A stretch of 64,000 nucleotides of DNA from assembly GCA_947632455.1 (NCBI GenBank), contig CANRPK010000003.1, forward strand, positions 2,476-66,475, in the 5' to 3' direction. The translations under genes were made by a program, and so were the position numbers. Below the pieces are notes generated by a model. That model made no database searches, was not told the origin of the DNA, and saw nothing but the letters and a program-made list of their open reading frames with translations. This document shows, one piece after another, positions 9,789 through 52,040 of the stretch (position 1 is the first letter of the stretch; each line of letters opens with the position of its first letter). The DNA comes from an uncultured Bacilli bacterium (GTDB lineage: Bacteria > Bacillota_I > Bacilli_A > RF39 > UBA660).

Positions 9789-12611
9789 ATGAATACATTA
9801 GAAATAGAAAAAAAATGGCAAAATATTTGGCAAGAAAATCACTATTTTGAAGCCAAAAACAATAGTGATAAACCAAAATATTATATCCTAGTAGAATTTC
9901 CTTATCCATCAGGATCTGGACTTCATGTTGGTCATGTAAGAAGTTATTCTGCACTAGATGCTATGGCTCGTATGAAAAGAATGCAAGGTTATAATGTGTT
10001 ATTTCCTATGGGTTGGGATGCTTTTGGAGCTCCAGCCGAACAATACGCCATCAAAAATCATATTTACCCAGCTGATGCAGTTAAAGAAAATATCAAAACT
10101 TTTAAAGGTCAAATTCAATCTTTAGGAATGTCTTTTGATTGGTCTAGAGAGTTTTCAACTACTGATCCAGAATATTATAAATGGACCCAATGGCAATTCT
10201 TACAATTTGTCAAAAAAGGCATGGCCTATAAAGCTGCTAAAGAAATAAATTGGTGTCCAAATTGTAAAACAGGGTTATCCAATGAAGATGCTGCCGGAGG
10301 AGTATGTGAAAGATGTGGAACTCCCGTAACTAAAAAATTAAAAAATCAATGGCTTTTAAAAATGAGTTCATATGCTGATAGATTATTAGATGGTCTAAAA
10401 GATACTGAATTTGAAGAAAGAATTAAAGTTGCGCAAATAAATTGGATAGGAAAAAGTATAGGTGCAGAAGTAAATTTCCAAGTAAAAGATACCGATTATT
10501 TATTAAAAGTTTTTACTACTCGTTGTGATACTTTATTTGGTGTAACCTTTATGGTTATTTCTCCAGAACATGAATTATTAACAAAATATGCCTCTAAAAT
10601 TAAAAATATTGAAGAAGTAAAAGAATATCAAGAACAAGCTAAAAATAAAAATGAAATTGAAAGAACCGATGTAACTAAAGAAAAAACTGGTGTTAGATTA
10701 GAAGGCCTAATGGCTATTAACCCTGTTAATAATACCGAAATTCCTATATATATTAGTGATTATGTTTTATCATCTTATGGAACTGGTGCTATTATGGCTG
10801 TTCCTGCTCATGATGAAAGAGATTATGATTTTGCTAAAAAATATAATATTCCTATAATTCAAGTTTTAGAAGAAACTACTGGTACTCCTAAAGAAGAAGA
10901 AACCAAAAAGAATTCTATAGTCGCGATTGTTTATGATCGAAAAAAAGATCAATACTTAACAATTAATTGGAATGAATTAGGTGGTCGTCTCTTTATTGGT
11001 GGTACTATTAAAGAAGGGGAAACTCCTCTTGAATGTGCTCTAAGAGAAATAAAAGAAGAAACAGGATATAAAAATTTAACTTTAAAATATACTCTACCTA
11101 TGATAAATCACCATTATTATGCTTATAATAAAGATAAATATTTTAATATCAATTCGACTGGCTTATATTTTGAACTAAATAATTATGATCAAGATTCTCA
11201 AGCCTTAGATAATGATGAAAAATTCACTGTTGAATGGATAGATAAATCTACCATATTAAATGAAGTAAAAGATGAATTACATGCTAAAACTTTTGCTTAT
11301 GCCTTAACGCCTGGCGCTATGGTCGGAGATGGAATACATATTAATTCTGAATTTCTTAATGGGTTAAATAAAGAAGATGCTATAAATAAAATGCTTGAAT
11401 TTTTAAGTTCTAACAATTTAGGTAAACAAGCGACAAATTATCGTTTACAAGATTGGATTTTCTCTCGTCAAAGATTCTGGGGTGAACCAATTCCAATGAT
11501 TTATTGCGATACTTGTGGTTGGGTTCCTGTTCCTGAAGAAGATCTTCCTGTATTACTTCCAACTGTAGCTAATTATGAACCTACTGATACTGGAGAATCT
11601 CCTCTTGCAAATATTACCGATTGGGTAAATACTACTTGTCCAAAATGTGGTAAACCTGCTCAAAGAGAAACTGATACTATGCCAAACTGGGCTGGTTCAA
11701 GTTGGTATTGGTTAAGATATATGGATGCCCATAATGATCAAGAATTTGTTGGTCGTGATGCCTTAAATTATTGGGGTATGGTAGATTATTATAATGGTGG
11801 TATGGAACATGCAACAAGACATTTATTATATGCAAGATTTTGGCATCAATTCTTATACGATCAAGGTTTAGTTCCAACCAAAGAACCATTTAAAAAACGT
11901 GTCGCGCATGGTATGATTTTAGGAGCTAATGGCGAAAAAATGAGTAAAAGTAAAGGAAATGTCATTAATCCTGATGATATGGTTAAACTTTATGGCGCTG
12001 ATGCTCTTCGTTGCTATGAATTATTTATTGGTGACTATGAAAAAGATGCTGCTTGGTCTGATAATGGTCTAAAAGGCTGTAGAAGATTTTTAGATCGTGT
12101 TGAAAGATTAAAAGAAAGAGTAATAGAAGGGGAAAATTATAGTTCATCTCTAGAAAATATTATTCATAAAACTATTAAAAAAGTTACTAATGATTTAGCC
12201 ACTATGAAATATAATACGGCAGTATCAAGTTTAATGATTTTAACTAATGCTTATGAAGAACAAGAAAATATAACTAAAAAAGATTATCAAACTTTATTAA
12301 TTCTTTTAAATCCTATTGCTCCTCATATAACTGAAGAACTAAATGAACAAATAGAATATACTACTAAAATTGTTGAAACTCCATGGCCAAGTTATGATGA
12401 AGCAAAAACTATCGACGATGAAGTAACTATTGGTATCCAAGTAAATGGCAAACTTCGTGGTGAAATTACGATTGAACCTGATGAAGAAGAGGAAAGTGTT
12501 AAAACTAAAGCTCTAGCCAATGAAAATGTTAAAAAACATATAGAAGGTAAAGAAATAATAAAAATAATTGTTATAAAAGGTAAAATTGTCAACATAGTCA
12601 TCAAACCTTAA
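9789..12611 (+). CDS. leuS: Leucyl-tRNA synthetase carrying an inserted Nudix domain
   Basis: Class I motifs HVGHVRSY and KMSKSKGN, and the CP1 editing domain. An ATG at 9789 with a purine-rich RBS is preferred over the GTG at 9780. There is an extra insertion of about 140 aa (see findings). Confidence 0.95.
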   Translation: MNTLEIEKKWQNIWQENHYFEAKNNSDKPKYYILVEFPYPSGSGLHVGHVRSYSALDAMARMKRMQGYNVLFPMGWDAFGAPAEQYAIKNHIYPADAVKENIKTFKGQIQSLGMSFDWSREFSTTDPEYYKWTQWQFLQFVKKGMAYKAAKEINWCPNCKTGLSNEDAAGGVCERCGTPVTKKLKNQWLLKMSSYADRLLDGLKDTEFEERIKVAQINWIGKSIGAEVNFQVKDTDYLLKVFTTRCDTLFGVTFMVISPEHELLTKYASKIKNIEEVKEYQEQAKNKNEIERTDVTKEKTGVRLEGLMAINPVNNTEIPIYISDYVLSSYGTGAIMAVPAHDERDYDFAKKYNIPIIQVLEETTGTPKEEETKKNSIVAIVYDRKKDQYLTINWNELGGRLFIGGTIKEGETPLECALREIKEETGYKNLTLKYTLPMINHHYYAYNKDKYFNINSTGLYFELNNYDQDSQALDNDEKFTVEWIDKSTILNEVKDELHAKTFAYALTPGAMVGDGIHINSEFLNGLNKEDAINKMLEFLSSNNLGKQATNYRLQDWIFSRQRFWGEPIPMIYCDTCGWVPVPEEDLPVLLPTVANYEPTDTGESPLANITDWVNTTCPKCGKPAQRETDTMPNWAGSSWYWLRYMDAHNDQEFVGRDALNYWGMVDYYNGGMEHATRHLLYARFWHQFLYDQGLVPTKEPFKKRVAHGMILGANGEKMSKSKGNVINPDDMVKLYGADALRCYELFIGDYEKDAAWSDNGLKGCRRFLDRVERLKERVIEGENYSSSLENIIHKTIKKVTNDLATMKYNTAVSSLMILTNAYEEQENITKKDYQTLLILLNPIAPHITEELNEQIEYTTKIVETPWPSYDEAKTIDDEVTIGIQVNGKLRGEITIEPDEEEESVKTKALANENVKKHIEGKEIIKIIVIKGKIVNIVIKP

Positions 12612-20087: not shown

Positions 20088-20129
20088 AATATATTTTAAT
20101 GTCCGAAAAGTTCGAACAGATTCGTCACT

Positions 20130-20204
20130 GGAGCAAGTGAGCGGAATCGAACCGCCGTCTCAACCTTGGCAAGGTCGCATACTAACCGCTGTACTACACC
20201 TGCG
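20130..20204 (-). tRNA. tRNA-Gly (GCC)
   Basis: The reverse complement GCAGGTGTAGTACAGCGGTTAGTATGCGACCTTGCCAAGGTTGAGACGGCGGTTCGATTCCGCTCACTTGCTCCA folds as a cloverleaf. Anticodon loop TTGCCAA, encoded CCA. Confidence 0.9.
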
Positions 20205-29182: not shown

Positions 29183-30667
29183 ATGAAAATAGAAAGGTTA
29201 GAAATAAGTAATAAAAAAGTAAAGATAGCATTTATAGTAGGAATAGTATTAACAGCAATATTATTTATAATGGTAAATTATTTAGTTACTAAAGCAAAGT
29301 ATCGAAATACAGAAAGCCTAGATTTAGTAAAAGGAACAATTACATATAATAAAGCAGATCTAAACATAATCGCGATGTATCAAGAAAGTAGCTATGGTAC
29401 AAATGGCTATAAACAAATAGATGATGTGCCAACAGAAAAATATACATTAAGTAATAAAAGTTATTGTGAAGTAGGCAGTCAAAAAGTAGAAGATGCTCAA
29501 ATTGAATATAGAGAAGGAGCAATATATGTAGGAAATATCAAAAAAAGAGGAACAAAATGTTATATATATTTTGATTTGGATTATAAGGCAGATGATATGT
29601 TAGCAAAATTAGAAACAATAAAACAAAGTAAATATGAAAAAACAGCAATGCCAAATCCAATCACAGGACCATACGATGCGGATGTAGAAAACCCGGAACA
29701 TAAAGAAAAAATATATACAACCGAAGATAACTACGGAACCAGTTATGTATTTAGAGGCAATAATGATGATGTAAATAACTGGGTAACATTTGCTAATCAT
29801 ACATGGAGGATAATCCGAATAAATGGAGATGGAACATTAAGGTTAATATTCCAATGTGCAGAGCCAAATTGTACAGATACAAAGGGACCAACAACCCAAA
29901 TAGGAAAAAGTGCATATAAATTAGCACCGCTTGATGATAATACCTATGTAGGATATTATTATGGCGAAGCGGGTCAAGACACATATGATAAAACTCATAC
30001 TAATGCTCATCCAAGCGATGTAGCAAAAGCTGTTGATAATTGGTATACCGGTACAGGAAATATGACTTCATATACTAAATATTTAAGTGGAGACACTGGA
30101 TTTTGTAATGATCGAGTAGTAGTTACTAAAGTTTGGAATGATTATGAAGGCAATGGAACAGGACAGTCTGCAACAGGATATGGTCCAGCAGCCAGATTAA
30201 TACTTAATGGCGGATGGAGAAAAAGTCAATACCCAACATTAAAGTGTGGGGTTAATATTGGTGGAGTAAATAAAGAAACATATGATAATTTTGATGTAGA
30301 TCCAACAGCATTAAAAAGAGATTTATTTACTACCAAGAACTCAGGCAGAGGTAACGAAATACTTACATATCCAGTAGGACTTATCACAAGTGATGAAGTT
30401 ACTATGGCTGGACTATTCGGAGGAACAGCATTTGCTGATTACTGGTTATATACAAATCAACATTATTGGACAATGTCTCCTAATTGGTATGATGTCAATA
30501 ATAAGGTGGCTGACGTGTTCCCTGTGCATGAGAATGGCAACTTTTACTACTGCGGCGTTGGTAGCGTTCATGGAGTGCGTCCAGTAATTAATCTTAATGC
30601 CGATATCGAATTTAGTGGAGGTACTGGTAAATCCGATAATCCATTTATCGTAAAAACAAGCAATTAA
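29183..30667 (+). CDS. Membrane-anchored paralog family protein, copy 1 (lectin-like C-terminal module)
   Basis: One N-terminal TM helix. Shares NWVTFANHTWRIIRINGDGTLRLIFQC, YVGYYYG, FCNDR, LKCG, LITSDEV, YWTMSP and GVRPVINLNADIEFSGG with 40641, 42526 and 50091. Confidence 0.85.
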   Translation: MKIERLEISNKKVKIAFIVGIVLTAILFIMVNYLVTKAKYRNTESLDLVKGTITYNKADLNIIAMYQESSYGTNGYKQIDDVPTEKYTLSNKSYCEVGSQKVEDAQIEYREGAIYVGNIKKRGTKCYIYFDLDYKADDMLAKLETIKQSKYEKTAMPNPITGPYDADVENPEHKEKIYTTEDNYGTSYVFRGNNDDVNNWVTFANHTWRIIRINGDGTLRLIFQCAEPNCTDTKGPTTQIGKSAYKLAPLDDNTYVGYYYGEAGQDTYDKTHTNAHPSDVAKAVDNWYTGTGNMTSYTKYLSGDTGFCNDRVVVTKVWNDYEGNGTGQSATGYGPAARLILNGGWRKSQYPTLKCGVNIGGVNKETYDNFDVDPTALKRDLFTTKNSGRGNEILTYPVGLITSDEVTMAGLFGGTAFADYWLYTNQHYWTMSPNWYDVNNKVADVFPVHENGNFYYCGVGSVHGVRPVINLNADIEFSGGTGKSDNPFIVKTSN

Positions 30668-30670
30668 AAA

Positions 30671-30708
30671 CTTGTCTATACTGCTTTCTTATTCCAAGTA
30701 TAGACAAG
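30671..30708 (+). other. Conserved post-stop hairpin, copy 1
   Basis: 12-bp stem CTTGTCTATACT/AGTATAGACAAG with 14-nt loop GCTTTCTTATTCCA. No T-run follows. Confidence 0.7.
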
Positions 30709-40058: not shown

Positions 40059-40508
40059 TTAACTTATTCTCCCAAGTAAATAATCCGCGGATATATTATA
40101 TCTTTTACATATTTCATATAAAAAAGAAGTTGAAATAAGATATCTTCCTCTCTCATAATCTGCAATAACTGAATGAGTAGTATTTAAAATATCTGCTAAT
40201 CTCTCTTGAGTAAGCTTATTATCTTTTCTAAATTTTTTTAATCTTTCTCCCAGTAATTCTTTTTTATATTGTTTTTCACTTTTTTTAAATTGTTTATTAT
40301 CAGTAAAACTAAATATATAATCTAAAGAAACATTAAAGTAATCACATAAATTAATTAAATGTTTTAAAGGCATGATAGTATATTCTGTTTCATACTGATT
40401 ATATGTTCCTTTATATATTTCTAATAAATCTGCCACTTCATATTGTTTTAAGTTTTTACTTTCTCTTAGTTCAATTAATCTTTTGCTATACATTGTATTC
40501 ACCAACAT
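40059..40508 (-). CDS. XRE-family regulator with two HTH domains (149 aa), divergent from copy 2
   Basis: Two Cro/C1 HTH units: LKQYEVADLLEIYKGTYNQYE and LTQERLADILNTTHSVIADYERG. Confidence 0.8.
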   Translation of the reverse strand: MLVNTMYSKRLIELRESKNLKQYEVADLLEIYKGTYNQYETEYTIMPLKHLINLCDYFNVSLDYIFSFTDNKQFKKSEKQYKKELLGERLKKFRKDNKLTQERLADILNTTHSVIADYERGRYLISTSFLYEICKRYNISADYLLGRIS

Positions 40509-40640: not shown

Positions 40641-42110
40641 ATGAAGATAGAAAAAATAGGGGAAACAAATAAATATAAATGGATAATAATAGGCTTTATC
40701 ATTTGTGCCAGTTTATTTGTTATGATAAATTACCTAATAACCAAAGCAAAATACCGAAATACAGAAAGTGTAGATTTAGTAAAAGGAACAATTACCTATA
40801 ATAAAGCAGATCTAAACATAATAGCGATGTATCAAGAAAGCAGTTATGGTACAAATGGGTATAAACAAATAGATGATGTACCAACTGAAAAATATACATT
40901 AAGTAATAAAAGTTATTGTGAAGTAGAAGGACAAAAAGTAGAAGAAGCCCAAATAACATATGAAGAAGGGTATATAAGTGTAAGTAAAATAAATAAAAGA
41001 GGAACAAAATGCTATATCTATTTTGACTTAGATTATACATCAGAAGATATGTTAGCAAAGTTAGAAGAAACAAAACAAAGTACATATGAAAAAACAACAA
41101 TGCCAAATCCAATCACAGGACCATATGATGAGCAAAAAGAAAATCCAGAACATAAAGAGAAACTATATACAACCGAAGATAATTATGGAACCAGTTATGT
41201 ATTTAGAGGAAACAATGAAGATGTAAATAACTGGGTAACATTTGCTAACCATACATGGAGGATAATCCGAATAAATGGAGATGGAACATTAAGAATGATA
41301 TTCCAATGTGCAACTCCAGGATGTACAGATACAGAAGGGTCAATAACCACAATAGGTAATAGTGCATATAAATTAGCCCCATTTGATGATAATGCATATG
41401 TCGGATATTATTACGGCGAAGCAGGACAAGACACATATGATAAAACTCACACCAATGCTTATCCGAGTAAAGTATCAGAAACCATAAAAGAGTGGTATAA
41501 CAAAAATGACAATATGACTAATTATACTAAATATTTAAGTGGAGATACAGGATGGTGTAATGATCGAGTAGTGGTTCAAAATCTTTGGGAAAGTGCTAAA
41601 GGCGATGGATCCAATAAATCCACTACAATTTATGGTCCAGCAAATAGACAAAAATTAAATAATGTTTGGAGAAAAGAACAATATGCAAATTTAAAATGTG
41701 GAACAATTTATGCTAATGATTTAAGTACTTTTTCATATAATGAGAAAGTAATGGAAAGGGATTTATTTACAACAGAAGGATCAATTCAAGGAAATGGAAA
41801 ACTCCCGGTTCCAGCCGCGTTAATCACAAGTGATGAAGCCTTGATGGTTGGAGGCTTTGGAGGAACAGCAAGCACAAATCATTGGCTATACACCAACCAA
41901 AATTATTGGACAATGTCTCCTTTTTGGTACGATGGAAATATGAATTGGGCCGTAATGTTTGCTATAAAAAGTGATGGTAGTGTTTATCATGAAAAAATAG
42001 GAATAACCAATAATGGAGTTCGCCCCGTAATTAATTTAAATGCTGATATAGAATTTAGCGGAGGAGACGGAAAATCATCTAATCCATTTATCGTAAAAAC
42101 AAACATATAA
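40641..42110 (+). CDS. Membrane-anchored paralog family protein, copy 2
   Basis: Same architecture and conserved blocks as copy 1. The 5' ~185 nt are about 94% identical to copy 1. Confidence 0.85.
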   Translation: MKIEKIGETNKYKWIIIGFIICASLFVMINYLITKAKYRNTESVDLVKGTITYNKADLNIIAMYQESSYGTNGYKQIDDVPTEKYTLSNKSYCEVEGQKVEEAQITYEEGYISVSKINKRGTKCYIYFDLDYTSEDMLAKLEETKQSTYEKTTMPNPITGPYDEQKENPEHKEKLYTTEDNYGTSYVFRGNNEDVNNWVTFANHTWRIIRINGDGTLRMIFQCATPGCTDTEGSITTIGNSAYKLAPFDDNAYVGYYYGEAGQDTYDKTHTNAYPSKVSETIKEWYNKNDNMTNYTKYLSGDTGWCNDRVVVQNLWESAKGDGSNKSTTIYGPANRQKLNNVWRKEQYANLKCGTIYANDLSTFSYNEKVMERDLFTTEGSIQGNGKLPVPAALITSDEALMVGGFGGTASTNHWLYTNQNYWTMSPFWYDGNMNWAVMFAIKSDGSVYHEKIGITNNGVRPVINLNADIEFSGGDGKSSNPFIVKTNI

Positions 42111-42525: not shown

Positions 42526-44034
42526 ATGAAAATAGAAAGGTTAGATATTGATAGTAAAAGAAATAAGACAATATTTGTAGTAGGATTTATATTAGCAATA
42601 ATATTAGTAATAGTAATAAACTATATAACCAGTCTAGCAAGATATAGGAATACAGAAAGTATAGAACTAGCAAGTGGTAATATAAACTACAATAAGGCAG
42701 ATTTGAATATAATCGCTATGTATCAAGAAAAAGATGATAGTACATCTGAAGAGAAAGAATATATAAATATAAATAAGATACCCACAATAGGATATAAATT
42801 AAGTGAAGATAGTTATTGTGAAATAAATGGAGAGCCAATAGAAGAAGTAGAGATAGAATATAAAAATAGTGCAATATATGTAGGAAATATAACAGAAAAA
42901 GGAACAAAATGTTATATATATTTTGATAGTTTAGTAAAAGAAATGTTAGGTAAATTAGAAACCTCAAAGGGAAGTAAATATACCATAGATGAAATGCCAA
43001 ATCCAATCACAGGACCATATGATGAAAGTACAGAAAATCCTGAAGGAGAAGAAAAATTATATACCAGTCCAGATAATTATGGAACCAGTTATGTCTTTAG
43101 AGGAAATAATGATGACGTAAATAACTGGGTAACTTTTGCTAATCATACATGGAGAATAATCAGAATAAATGGAGATGGAACATTAAGGTTAATATTCCAA
43201 TGTGCAACTGAAAATTGTACTGATGCAATCGGTGAAAATACCCAAATAGGAAAAAGTGCTTATAAATCTAAACCGTTTGATGATAATACCTATGTAGGAT
43301 ATTATTATGGAACAGCACACACAGATGAAAAACCAAGTCCAAGTTATGAAGAAGCACATTCAAACTCTACGATAGCTAAAGCAATAAATAATTGGTACAG
43401 TGGTACAGGAGCAATGACAGATTACACCAATTATTTAGAGGGAAGCACAGGATTTTGTAATGATCGAGTAGTAGTAAAAAATGTTTTGAATACGTTTGAA
43501 GGCGATGGTGCCGCACAAAGTTCAACAGGTTATGCACCAGCCGCCAGATTAATTTCAACTAGCGTACGGAGAACAAAACAATATCCAACATTAAAGTGTG
43601 GAGTTGTAATGCCAGAAATAAGCCCATCAAATGATGTAGGATTTAATAGTTTTGATGAGATAGATACTACCGCATTAAAAAGAGACTTATTCACAGTAGA
43701 AGGTTCAGATAGAGGAAATGCAAAGCTTCCAGTGCCAGTAGGGCTTATCACTAGTGATGAAGTAGCAATGGCTGGAGGCTTTGGAAGAACAGTCTCTACT
43801 GATTACTGGTTATATACAAATCAAGATTATTGGACAATGTCTCCACGAGACTATGATGCTTCGGTTAAGTGGGCTAATGTGTTCGCTGTTCGTGAAGATG
43901 GCACCCTCAACAGTTGGAGCATTAGAGATAGTCGTAGTGGAATGCGTCCAGTCATCAACTTAAAAGCTGATATTGAATTTAGTGGAGGAGCTGGAAAATC
44001 ATCTAATCCATTTATTGTAAATACAAGTAATTAA
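42526..44034 (+). CDS. Membrane-anchored paralog family protein, copy 3
   Basis: Same conserved blocks. Tandem to copy 2. Confidence 0.85.
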   Translation: MKIERLDIDSKRNKTIFVVGFILAIILVIVINYITSLARYRNTESIELASGNINYNKADLNIIAMYQEKDDSTSEEKEYININKIPTIGYKLSEDSYCEINGEPIEEVEIEYKNSAIYVGNITEKGTKCYIYFDSLVKEMLGKLETSKGSKYTIDEMPNPITGPYDESTENPEGEEKLYTSPDNYGTSYVFRGNNDDVNNWVTFANHTWRIIRINGDGTLRLIFQCATENCTDAIGENTQIGKSAYKSKPFDDNTYVGYYYGTAHTDEKPSPSYEEAHSNSTIAKAINNWYSGTGAMTDYTNYLEGSTGFCNDRVVVKNVLNTFEGDGAAQSSTGYAPAARLISTSVRRTKQYPTLKCGVVMPEISPSNDVGFNSFDEIDTTALKRDLFTVEGSDRGNAKLPVPVGLITSDEVAMAGGFGRTVSTDYWLYTNQDYWTMSPRDYDASVKWANVFAVREDGTLNSWSIRDSRSGMRPVINLKADIEFSGGAGKSSNPFIVNTSN

Positions 44035-49692: not shown

Positions 49693-49722
49693 AAAGTCGC
49701 TTTTAAAGCGACTAATTTTTTT
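49691..49722. terminator. Bidirectional terminator shared by the ABC operon and the convergent XRE gene
   Basis: AGTCGCTT-TTA-AAGCGACT flanked by an A-run and a T-run. Confidence 0.6.
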
Positions 49723-49957
49723 GTATTAATTTATCTAAACTTACATCTAAAGCAATAGAAATTCTATATAAAGTATCTACCGAAAAAGTATTAGCAACTT
49801 TTTCACTTTCAATTTGGCGAATAAAATCATGAGATAAATCTACTAATTCCGCCAGTTGAGCCGCCGTCATTCCTTTTTCTTTTCGATATTTTTTTATATT
49901 TTTTCGAATGGTTCCATAAATATCCGTATCAAATTGCAATTTCTTCAAACTAACCAC
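49712..49957 (-). CDS. XRE-family HTH regulator (81 aa), divergent from copy 4
   Basis: MTAAQLAELVDLSHDFIRQIESEK is a Cro/C1 HTH. Confidence 0.8.
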   Translation of the reverse strand: MVSLKKLQFDTDIYGTIRKNIKKYRKEKGMTAAQLAELVDLSHDFIRQIESEKVANTFSVDTLYRISIALDVSLDKLIQKN

Positions 49958-50090: not shown

Positions 50091-52040
50091 ATGACAAAAA
50101 ATCGCATATTAATTGCAATAGTAAGTGTATTGCTTATTGGGGTAGGAATAAGTATGGCATATTTTGCCGCAAAGGTAAGTAGTACAGGTGGAGGAATAAG
50201 TACAGAAGTAACAACCGCTAAAATAGGCGATGTAACAATAGAGATGTATGGAAAATTAGATTTAGATGTTGAAGATATGTATCCAGGACATTCAGATGTA
50301 TCAAGATTAGATGTAAAAGCTACGGGAGATAATAGATTAGTCGCATATAATTTAGTGTGGGCAGGAACAAATAGCCTACAAACAAAAATAGAATATATAG
50401 TATATAGAGTAACAAATACTTTAGAAGTAAGTAGTGCTTGTGAAGTAAAAACAAAAATAATAGAAGAAGGACAAGCCGTATATGAAGAATGTAAAATAAA
50501 TAATATAGATAAATTAGGAAGTCCAGTAGGAAGTGGAACAATAGAGACTGGCGAAGAAATATTAGTAGAGGATGAATTTATAAATGCTAGTCCAACCGGA
50601 GAAGAAATCCATTATTATGTGGTATTAACATATCCAAATAAAGAAGAAGATCAAGATTATGATAGAACAGGGGAATTTAGTGGCGAGATAAAAATAACCA
50701 ATAGTGATGCTAAACCAGATATAACAATCTTAGCCGCATATGTAGAAGATGAAAAGACAGGTAAGTTTAATGAAGCAAAGAAGATACCTGAAGGAGAATA
50801 TAAACTAAATAATAGAAGTACATGTACAAATGGAGCAACCCCAATATGGGATACAAATAATAAAGGATTATTAGTTGCAAATTTAACAGAAACAGGAACT
50901 AGTTGTGTTTTATATTTTGAAAAGAAATATGCATCAGATGATATGTTAGCAAAACTAGAGGCAGCAAGACAAGCAAAATTCAATATCGAAAAGATGCCAA
51001 ATCCCCTCACCGGACCATATAGTGGCGATGCTAGTTCTGATCAACCAATAGCGAATGATAAATTATATACAAGTCCAGATAATTATGGAAGAAGTTATGT
51101 ATTTAGAGGAAACAATTATGATGTTCACAACTGGGTAACATTCGCAGGACATACATGGAGAATAATCAGAATAAATGGAGATGGCACATTAAGATTAATA
51201 TATCAATGTGCTACCCCAGGATGTACAACAACTGAAGGAGAAGGAACTCACATAGGAACAAGTATATATAAGTCAGAAGCAATAGATGATAATACCTATG
51301 TAGGATATTATTATGGAGAACCAGGACAAGAAACATATGATGCCACTCATACAAATGCTCATCAAAGTACTATAGCTAAATATATTTCAGATTGGTATAG
51401 TGGAACAGGAGCAATGACAAATTATACTAAATATTTAAGTGGAGATACAGGATGGTGTAATGACCGAACAGCAGTTAAAAATTTTTTGAATGGATATGAA
51501 GGTGATGGTACGGGTAAAACTTTAACAGGATATGCGCTATCAACAAGACTAATTGCAAAAGGCGGAGCCTGGAGATTAAAACAATATCCGACCTTAAAAT
51601 GTGGAGCGGTAATGCCAGAAGAAAATCCAACAGAAGAAGAAGGAGCAAAATATTTTAGCAATTTTGAAGTAGACAATACTGCTTTAAAAAGAGATTTATA
51701 TACAACAATAGGTTCTAGTAATGGAAATAAAGTATTAGATGTTCCAGCAGCCTTAGTTACAACTGATGAAGTAGCTATGGCAGGAGGCTTTGGAGGTACA
51801 GCTTCTACAAATTATTGGCTATATACAAATCAATATTATTGGGCAATGTCTTCTTGGGGTTATTTTTCAGAAGGCTTTGCTCGTGCGTGGGTTACACAGG
51901 AGGGTGGTGCCTTATGGGGTGCCTGGGAAGTACGTCGTAGTTACGGTGTCCGCCCAGTAATAAATTTAAATGCTGATGTAACATTTAGTGGAGGAACAGG
52001 TACATCAAGTAATCCATTTGTAGTAAATACAAGTAATTAA
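50091..52040 (+). CDS. Paralog family protein, copy 4, with an extra TasA/camelysin-like N-terminal domain
   Basis: N-terminus ILIAIVSVLLIGVGISMAYFAAKVSS and MYPGHSDVSRLDVKATG (TasA-like), followed by the shared core from DDMLAKLEAARQ to GVRPVINLNADVTFSGG. Confidence 0.85.
   Translation: MTKNRILIAIVSVLLIGVGISMAYFAAKVSSTGGGISTEVTTAKIGDVTIEMYGKLDLDVEDMYPGHSDVSRLDVKATGDNRLVAYNLVWAGTNSLQTKIEYIVYRVTNTLEVSSACEVKTKIIEEGQAVYEECKINNIDKLGSPVGSGTIETGEEILVEDEFINASPTGEEIHYYVVLTYPNKEEDQDYDRTGEFSGEIKITNSDAKPDITILAAYVEDEKTGKFNEAKKIPEGEYKLNNRSTCTNGATPIWDTNNKGLLVANLTETGTSCVLYFEKKYASDDMLAKLEAARQAKFNIEKMPNPLTGPYSGDASSDQPIANDKLYTSPDNYGRSYVFRGNNYDVHNWVTFAGHTWRIIRINGDGTLRLIYQCATPGCTTTEGEGTHIGTSIYKSEAIDDNTYVGYYYGEPGQETYDATHTNAHQSTIAKYISDWYSGTGAMTNYTKYLSGDTGWCNDRTAVKNFLNGYEGDGTGKTLTGYALSTRLIAKGGAWRLKQYPTLKCGAVMPEENPTEEEGAKYFSNFEVDNTALKRDLYTTIGSSNGNKVLDVPAALVTTDEVAMAGGFGGTASTNYWLYTNQYYWAMSSWGYFSEGFARAWVTQEGGALWGAWEVRRSYGVRPVINLNADVTFSGGTGTSSNPFVVNTSN

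Follow-up and report, generated by a model that had tools for sequence, protein, structure and literature searches.

The stretch of DNA analysed here, which we call the window, comprises 64,000 nucleotides (64 kb) of chromosomal sequence from a Firmicute, an uncultured bacterium of the Bacilli (GenBank assembly GCA_947632455.1, contig CANRPK010000003.1), and has a G+C content of 27%. On its + strand, at positions 29183..30667, an open reading frame (ORF) encodes c1, a protein of 494 aa that contains, in frame, a segment of 30 codons (30482..30571, + strand) with the features of the variable region (VR) of a diversity-generating retroelement (DGR) target. This segment lies between the motifs YWTMSP and GVRPVINL. 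Its 5' border, TAT TGG ACA ATG TCT CCT (30464..30481, + strand), encodes YWTMSP and is (nearly) invariant in 107 homologs; its G+C-rich 3' border, GGAGTGCGTCCA (30572..30583, + strand), encodes G-V-R-P, and residues R466, P467 and V468 are invariant among the 107 homologs. In what follows, c1 to c4 denote the paralogs of the window, an L with a number denotes relative or metagenome loci, and a P with a number denotes proteins of the family.

Four paralogs, 52-70% identical, were detected in the window by tblastn, all of them on the + strand: c1, c2 (40641..42110, VR at 41922-42014), c3 (42526..44034, VR at 43846-43938) and c4 (50091..52040, VR at 51855-51944), a 649-aa protein whose N-terminal extension is different. 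Their divergence concentrates in the ~30 codons between YW[TA]MS[PS] and G[VM]RPVINL. The protein and contig indexes have no entry for the exact c1 protein, and look-ups of the exact proteins P0008 and P0031 found no record either; for each of c2, c3 and c4 a database protein with 100% identity exists, and contigs from ENA metagenomes of this strain are broken within the paralogs.

The c1 protein combines an N-terminal transmembrane anchor and a small beta-rich domain with a large domain at the C-terminus that is DUF6273-like (C-lectin-like). Its AlphaFold2 model (pLDDT 88.8) shows a helix at residues 11-38, and the best matches to this model in BFVD, searched with Foldseek, were DUF6273 phage proteins (E 4e-6, probability 0.99-1.0). 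Against the PDB, Foldseek returned for the full-length model short C-lectin matches only, none of them significant; a profile search of PDB sequences gave no match, and in a Pfam search none of the four window paralogs matched DUF6273 (PF19789) or any other family at E<=1. Distant homologs reach 23.4-32.4 bits, the DUF6273 cutoff being 23.5, and align solely to the C-terminal end of this domain (positions 127-171 of 172, the last 45), over the VR segment. The relation of the c1 family to DUF6273 is one of remote homology and structural similarity. DUF6273 is itself a C-lectin-like domain that is a DGR target in gut Firmicute phages, with the VR at its C-terminal end (PMC10743442, PMC11792537, bioRxiv 10.1101/2024.10.15.618418). 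The c1 protein is a predicted membrane-anchored surface protein, whose VR belongs to the C-lectin-like, predicted ligand-binding domain.

The segment carries a strong compositional footprint. The sequence-only reading of this locus had counted 40 G+C among the 90 nucleotides of 30482-30571 and 35 among the 67 from 30505 on, and both counts were correct, as were the coordinates and the frame. It had also described a run of twelve consecutive codons ending in a pyrimidine (NNY); the run is real, but it comprises 13 codons starting at 30533 (AAT GGC AAC TTT TAC TAC TGC GGC GTT GGT AGC GTT CAT). The run and the G+C shift had been expected to stand out from a codon-shuffled null. This was clearly so for the G+C content at third codon positions (GC3), which is 16/30 (0.53) in the c1 VR and 0.16 in the rest of the gene, a value reached by 0 of 20,000 synonymous shuffles, whereas a run of at least 13 NNY codons is only moderately unusual (P=0.0125 with full codon shuffling, P=0.005 with synonymous shuffling). 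Tabulation of third positions, which had been suggested as a further check, bore out the bias: A-ending codons are 0/30 inside the c1 VR and 219/464 outside it (p=2e-8), and in four-fold codon boxes third-position A occurs 0/11 times inside and 115/178 outside. For the two-fold, Y-ending amino acids the C:T ratio is 7:9 inside and 18:126 outside (p=0.004). The A fraction of the VR is 0.23 against 0.42, 24 of its 30 codons are NNY and none is NNA, and its scaffold codons GCT, GTG, TTC, GTG and GGC are free of adenine. Among ~17,000 windows of 30 codons taken from all ORFs of the 64 kb, a GC3 >=0.5 was found only in the c1 VR and in a false ORF over a tRNA cluster.

This footprint extends to two of the other paralogs. 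Adenine depletion is common to the VRs of c3 (A fraction 0.24, GC3 0.39) and c4 (A fraction 0.16, G+C 0.53), the reference value being 0.42, and is absent in c2 (A fraction 0.38, GC3 0.23, nine NNA codons); over the full length of the c1, c3 and c4 genes, GC3 peaks in windows within the VR segment. When c1-c4 were pooled, third-position A in four-fold boxes was found at 7/48 sites inside the VRs and at 499/760 outside (p=2e-12). The ordinary composition of the c2 VR suggests a decayed or never-written state.

The family to which c1 belongs is large, with >3,000 homologs. Scans of metagenome and genome collections yielded 157 loci; a scan of GTDB-representative contigs with patterns derived from the four-paralog alignment found no relatives, the patterns being too specific, so the species of the window has no representative in that collection. 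The members in genome collections come from uncultured gut Bacilli and 'Mycoplasmatota' metagenome-assembled genomes (MAGs), among them 'Mycoplasma sp. CAG:776' and isolates from rabbit ('Lapin'), and are 31-44% identical to c1. Overall, the family is hosted by uncultured Bacilli of the human, rabbit and chicken gut, each genome having several to more than ten paralogs. Three relatives were found in viral contigs, in tail-fibre-like regions that lack a template repeat (TR) or a reverse transcriptase (RT). Across 86 unique family VRs, mean GC3 is 0.36, the remainder of the gene having 0.18 (the VR exceeds it in 69/86), and the mean A fraction is 0.24 against 0.39 elsewhere (lower in the VR in 83/86); third-position A in four-fold boxes amounts to 255/1145 inside and 6405/10972 outside (p=3e-124). 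VR composition seems to fall into two classes: roughly a third to one half of the VRs are nearly devoid of A-ending codons (an NNA fraction <=0.07 in 27/76 VRs of genome MAGs), and the others are ordinary and coding-like, as in c2.

Several relatives of c1 carry a TR, and these pairs were compared with an adenine-tolerant ungapped scan, in which a position is accepted when the template carries either A or the base of the VR. In L083 (VR ~851-966, TR ~2408-2523) there were 0 non-A mismatches in 111 nt. In L087 the VR (~2577-2675) is followed 360 nt downstream by a TR with ~27 mismatches, all at template adenines, and then by a bAvd-like ORF; L174 likewise presents ~27 adenine-site mismatches between TR and VR. 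The TRs of L087 and L174 are identical and their VRs are different, differing only at template adenines, and therefore this element is actively diversifying. L174 and L175 contain a full DGR cassette, consisting of the target gene (7893-9524), the TR, bAvd (10001-10342) and an RT (10329-11606) with the motifs YMDD and IGCLSNQ. At the level of sequence comparison, these data amount to proof that the segment is a DGR VR in the family members L083, L087 and L174; the VRs of L083 and L087 belong to the same composition class as that of c1. The borders of the c1 segment agree with those of the templates: the TGTCTCC within the 5' border marks the start of homology to the TRs of the relatives, whose template elements begin TGTCTCCG, and the 3' border coincides with the 3' end of the template homology in the relatives (GGTGTGCGCCCA), where the template-VR alignments stop right after CGCCCA. 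This 3' border is likely a boundary resembling an IMH (initiation of mutagenic homing) site, with a putative IMH function.

Other relatives contain stand-alone TR elements of ~330 nt, each composed of a TATAAT box, the leader TTGGTTAATCTA, a TR rich in AAY, a conserved 3' domain some 200 nt long and a hairpin terminator. Either single or arrayed in tandem, they lie 1.5-4 kb upstream of family genes, at L008:6790-7150 and 8135-8420, at L011:5965-6320, 7050-7400 and 8395-8680, at L111:6899-9358 (five copies), at L164:5756-6330 and 9250-9529, and also in L170, L146, L108, L042, L044 and L030. No DGR RT or Avd was found within 10 kb of these elements, an architecture that is unusual for a DGR. In some loci the TR elements are interleaved with genes for YhcG/DUF1016 PD-(D/E)xK nucleases (L008:7209-8135; L011:6285-7028 and 7472-8395; PADLOC candidate PDC-S02, E 2.6e-75), and in others, such as the L111 array, they are not. 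The RT located near the L008 family gene was rejected as a DGR RT, as it is a retron RT of the Ec107-like type (PADLOC E 5.5e-118). It lies at L008:15967-16899 (and also in L009, L010, L012 and L021), with ~240 nt of non-coding sequence upstream, between a parAB region and ychF and ~4.5 kb from the family gene.

The c1 segment itself is homologous to these templates and VRs. A DNA profile of eight TR elements matched the c1 VR in an nhmmer search at 30470-30598 (E 6.8e-10) and the c3 VR at 43834-43952 (E 7e-6); it gave no match to c2 or c4. Moreover, the VRs of c1, of an L004 paralog and of the L090 ortholog of c2 have a common skeleton, TAT GAT GNC AAT NAT AAG GTG GCT NNN RTG TTC NNT GTG .. 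GGC, which includes the rare adenine-free codons and varies mostly at codon positions 1 and 2. The c2 VR (41922-42014) is A-rich, and its L090 ortholog (9393-9482) is adenine-poor and built on this c1 skeleton; therefore, the state of a VR changes between close species and between paralogs. The lineage of the window itself also has a TR-plus-3'-domain element, located in L092 beside the paralog P0051.

The segment is also hypervariable between orthologs. Syntenic orthologs from a sister species are 75-88% identical in amino acid sequence outside the VR and 23-33% within it: 33% in the VR against 79% elsewhere for the c1 ortholog (L089), 27% against 80% for that of c3 and 23% against 88% for that of c4. 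In adenine-depleted pairs of ortholog VRs, codon position 3 accounts for 0.26-0.30 of the differences inside the VR and 0.46-0.54 outside.

We conclude, with a probability of roughly 80%, that 30482-30571 is the VR of a DGR target gene, written from an AAY-rich template. The sequence-only reading had already attributed the NNY pattern to AAY template codons randomised at their adenines, an attribution that gains support from the position of the VR, the adenine-only TR mismatches of the relatives, the match to the template profile and the adenine-free scaffold codons. According to this mechanism, a TR RNA rich in AAY codons would be copied by the DGR reverse transcriptase together with its Avd partner, the enzyme would misincorporate opposite template adenines, and the resulting cDNA would take the place of the VR, bounded by TGTCTCC on one side and GTGCGYCCA on the other. 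The VR would be rich in NNY codons because randomised codons keep their third base and would be depleted of adenine because of the adenine specificity of the retrohoming mechanism, and its G+C content would be raised within a 27% G+C genome because constant residues use adenine-free codons (GTG, GGC, GCT, TTC, TGG). In the window, c1, c3 and c4 carry DGR-type VRs and c2 probably a decayed one. We infer a DGR as the writer of c1 itself, with its TR and RT located elsewhere in the genome. The chance that c1 is still a competent DGR target appears to be slightly below even; that it is an orphan with a frozen VR is only a little less likely.

Several results weigh against a DGR that acts on c1. 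As the sequence-only reading had stated, no RT or template repeat is visible, and this holds across the 64-kb window: blastn-short, the adenine-tolerant scan and the TR profile revealed no template for c1 on either strand. The scan, run with the four VRs and their flanks on both strands, returned A-rich noise only, and the profile detected no TR-type element. Neither did a search of the six frames of the window reveal an RT motif, nor did any of its ORFs match RVT_1 or Avd/bAvd in Pfam; RT and Avd genes are also absent from the annotation of L001, L089 and L090, syntenic loci that cover 20-54 kb of the window. Furthermore, the alignment of the four paralog VRs indicated that a single template would not serve them all, since they have too few positions in common, and in the comparison of c1 with heterologous templates the excess of mismatches at adenine sites was a trend only (55% vs 34%, p=0.056). 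In the sister species, a TR-plus-3'-domain element lies at L092:11768-12032, between the paralog P0051 and the S10 ribosomal operon, and this TR departs from the VR beside it at 10 non-adenine positions, so that it may be in decay or may serve another target. Some matches of stand-alone TRs are to VRs that lie on a different contig of their MAG, which we counted in favor of remote targets, but these pairs, with 14-18 adenine-site mismatches, also show 5-6 non-adenine ones. Finally, the c1 VR is identical in the independent metagenome contig L001, and related ortholog VRs are invariant over >150 contigs, the one divergent allele being a 3'-end swap with a paralog; therefore, no ongoing diversification is seen.

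Two candidate templates for c1 were rejected. The c1-c2 differences are not adenine-specific, so c2 does not qualify, and the L092 TR has 11 non-A mismatches to c1 in 80 nt; nor did this TR fit as an adenine-only template any other VR compared.

A rival account, which differs from the preferred one on present activity only, holds that an ancestral DGR wrote the segment, that this genome has since lost a working RT or cognate template, and that the loop, now fixed, is slowly drifting to A+T, with c2 as the end state. We regard such a fossil VR as a serious candidate, if one with less than an even chance of being correct. The lack of a TR, RT or Avd in 64 kb, the identity of the c1 VR in a second assembly and the invariance of related VRs are in line with it, as are the seemingly bimodal composition of the family VRs, with many gene-like members besides the 27/76 poor in NNA codons, and the non-adenine mismatches of the L092 template to its own VR; a preprint further describes DUF6273 targets retained in phages without a DGR (bioRxiv 10.1101/2024.10.15.618418). 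However, the finding of 0/30 A-ending codons in a 27% G+C genome argues for recent writing, the promoters, 3' domains and terminators of the TR elements have stayed conserved in the relatives, which suggests ongoing use, and remote targets are normal for chromosomal DGRs, for which distances of >100 kb between target and RT have been documented (PMC5758913).

An explanation without any retroelement would be that the segment is a ligand-binding loop under diversifying selection, shuffled among paralogs through gene conversion or recombination, whose Tyr/Ser/Gly/Asn/Asp-rich composition gives the NNY bias. Indeed, amino acids of binding sites are mostly NNY-encoded, an excess of change at codon positions 1 and 2 is also expected from positive selection, the NNY run alone has a P of only ~0.01, and there are signs of exchange between paralogs: in the natural variant P0140, compared with P0110 and P0086, the VR and C-terminal tail are replaced by sequence matching the tail of a paralog, which indicates gene conversion or recombination between paralogs besides any DGR action. 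Nonetheless, we consider this explanation improbable, since it leaves unaccounted for the avoidance of adenine at synonymous sites (0/11 vs 115/178 in four-fold boxes), the rare adenine-free codons at conserved scaffold residues, the DNA similarity to non-coding AAY-rich templates and the adenine-only template mismatches in family members. Gene conversion from silent cassettes, of the pilE/pilS or vlsE type, was rejected as well: the c1 segment is not repeated elsewhere in the window, which holds no extra, silent-cassette-like copies, and the non-coding copies in the relatives are AAY-rich and differ almost only at adenines. That the segment is a patch acquired from a donor richer in G+C, or that its composition fluctuated by chance, to which the local G+C of 44-52% in a 27% window might point, is hardly credible, since c3, c4 and dozens of homologs from different species show this shift at the very same 30 codons (GC3 higher in 69/86 VRs, A lower in 83/86), the segment borders coincide with conserved protein motifs and 0/20,000 synonymous shuffles reach the GC3 of c1.

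The reading of c1 as a DGR target places it close to systems already described. The DUF6273 DGR targets of gut Firmicute phages, which comprise tentaclins/Mtd-like proteins and the targets of a Faecalibacterium prophage and of Toutatisvirus (PMC10743442, PMC11792537, bioRxiv 10.1101/2024.10.15.618418), resemble the c1 family in having the VR at the DUF6273-like C-terminal end, between a Y-W-x-x-S-P-type motif and G-V-R-P, in their AAY-rich templates, in the presence of several targets per element and in that some targets have no DGR nearby. In contrast to them, the proteins of the window are chromosomal, membrane-anchored and of ~500 aa, belong to an uncultured gut Bacilli with at least four dispersed paralogs, and are found without phage context and without an RT or TR in 64 kb; in addition, c1 falls below the Pfam threshold for DUF6273. 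Dispersed chromosomal paralogs of surface proteins with C-lectin-fold VRs are also a trait of the Treponema denticola DGR, which comprises TvpA and seven remote targets (PMC4891356, PMC5758913). There the RT is distant from its targets; in the window only the targets are known, and an RT for c1 is a presumption. A single TR serves all targets in Treponema, whose VRs share non-adenine positions, whereas the VRs of the window are too different for one template and its relatives carry several stand-alone TR elements. With the DGR known from Bordetella phage BPP-1 (Mtd, Avd, TR and Brt), the locus would have in common adenine-specific mutagenic retrohoming into a C-terminal C-lectin-fold VR; the relatives L174 and L175 have the bAvd-RT pair, and the VR has a G+C-rich 3' boundary, which in the window is a candidate IMH. 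All the parts of BPP-1 lie, however, within ~3 kb, and the window holds the target only.

The stand-alone arrays of the relatives led us to consider a wider proposal, which we put forward tentatively and regard as rather unlikely: uncultured gut Bacilli would run a distributed, multi-template DGR network, in which arrays of TR RNAs are used in trans by an RT-Avd pair encoded elsewhere and c1, c3 and c4 are remote targets. In such a network, an array upstream of the targets may comprise as many as five TR-plus-3'-domain RNA genes, each transcribed on its own and some of them interleaved with YhcG-like nuclease genes, and the RT-Avd pair may rewrite a dozen or more dispersed paralogous genes for surface proteins. 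In its most radical form, the TR arrays may persist and act in genomes without a DGR RT of their own, for instance with the help of a borrowed phage or retron-type enzyme.

Regarding the surroundings of the family genes, an inverted repeat, CTTGTCTATACT...AGTATAGACAAG, is located on the + strand just past the c1 stop codon (30671..30708). It was read from the sequence and from an alignment of the four 3' ends, is kept downstream of c1, c2 and c3, and is probably a transcription terminator. Directly upstream of almost every family gene there is a divergent gene for an XRE-type helix-turn-helix (HTH) regulator, all on the (-) strand (window 40059-40508 and 49712-49957; L089:9670-9870; L092:8956-9828; L093:9399-9860), and these per-paralog regulator genes suggest dedicated transcriptional control of each family paralog. 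The gene content of the window includes FtsW, a Mur ligase, SirA, CotJB and SpoVS, as well as a leucyl-tRNA synthetase ORF (9780-12611), in which a match to the NUDIX domain (residues 380-499, E 2.9e-11) follows the editing domain as an insertion. The false G+C-rich ORF mentioned above, on the minus strand at 57597-57872, arises from five tRNA genes clustered at 57518-57952 (Val, Thr, Tyr, Gln and Lys); a single tRNA-Gly gene lies at 20129-20203.

It is already known that DGR VRs reside in C-lectin/DUF6273 folds and that DGR targets can be far from the RT; what c1 adds is a further case, from an unannotated protein family of uncultured gut Bacilli. The more unusual observation is that of the stand-alone TR arrays, seen in the relatives and not in the window. 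Such arrays of template RNAs would escape the standard DGR finders because these tools anchor on the RT. For the window, the practical consequence is the annotation of the VRs of c1, c3 and c4 as DGR-type and of the c2 VR as probably decayed. Furthermore, our results show that a DGR-written VR is recognisable from the DNA alone, even when the retroelement is remote or gone, by the depletion of adenine at synonymous sites, by adenine-free scaffold codons and by NNY codons, and they identify as DGR targets a large family of surface proteins, C-lectin-like and anchored in the membrane, that has had no annotation.

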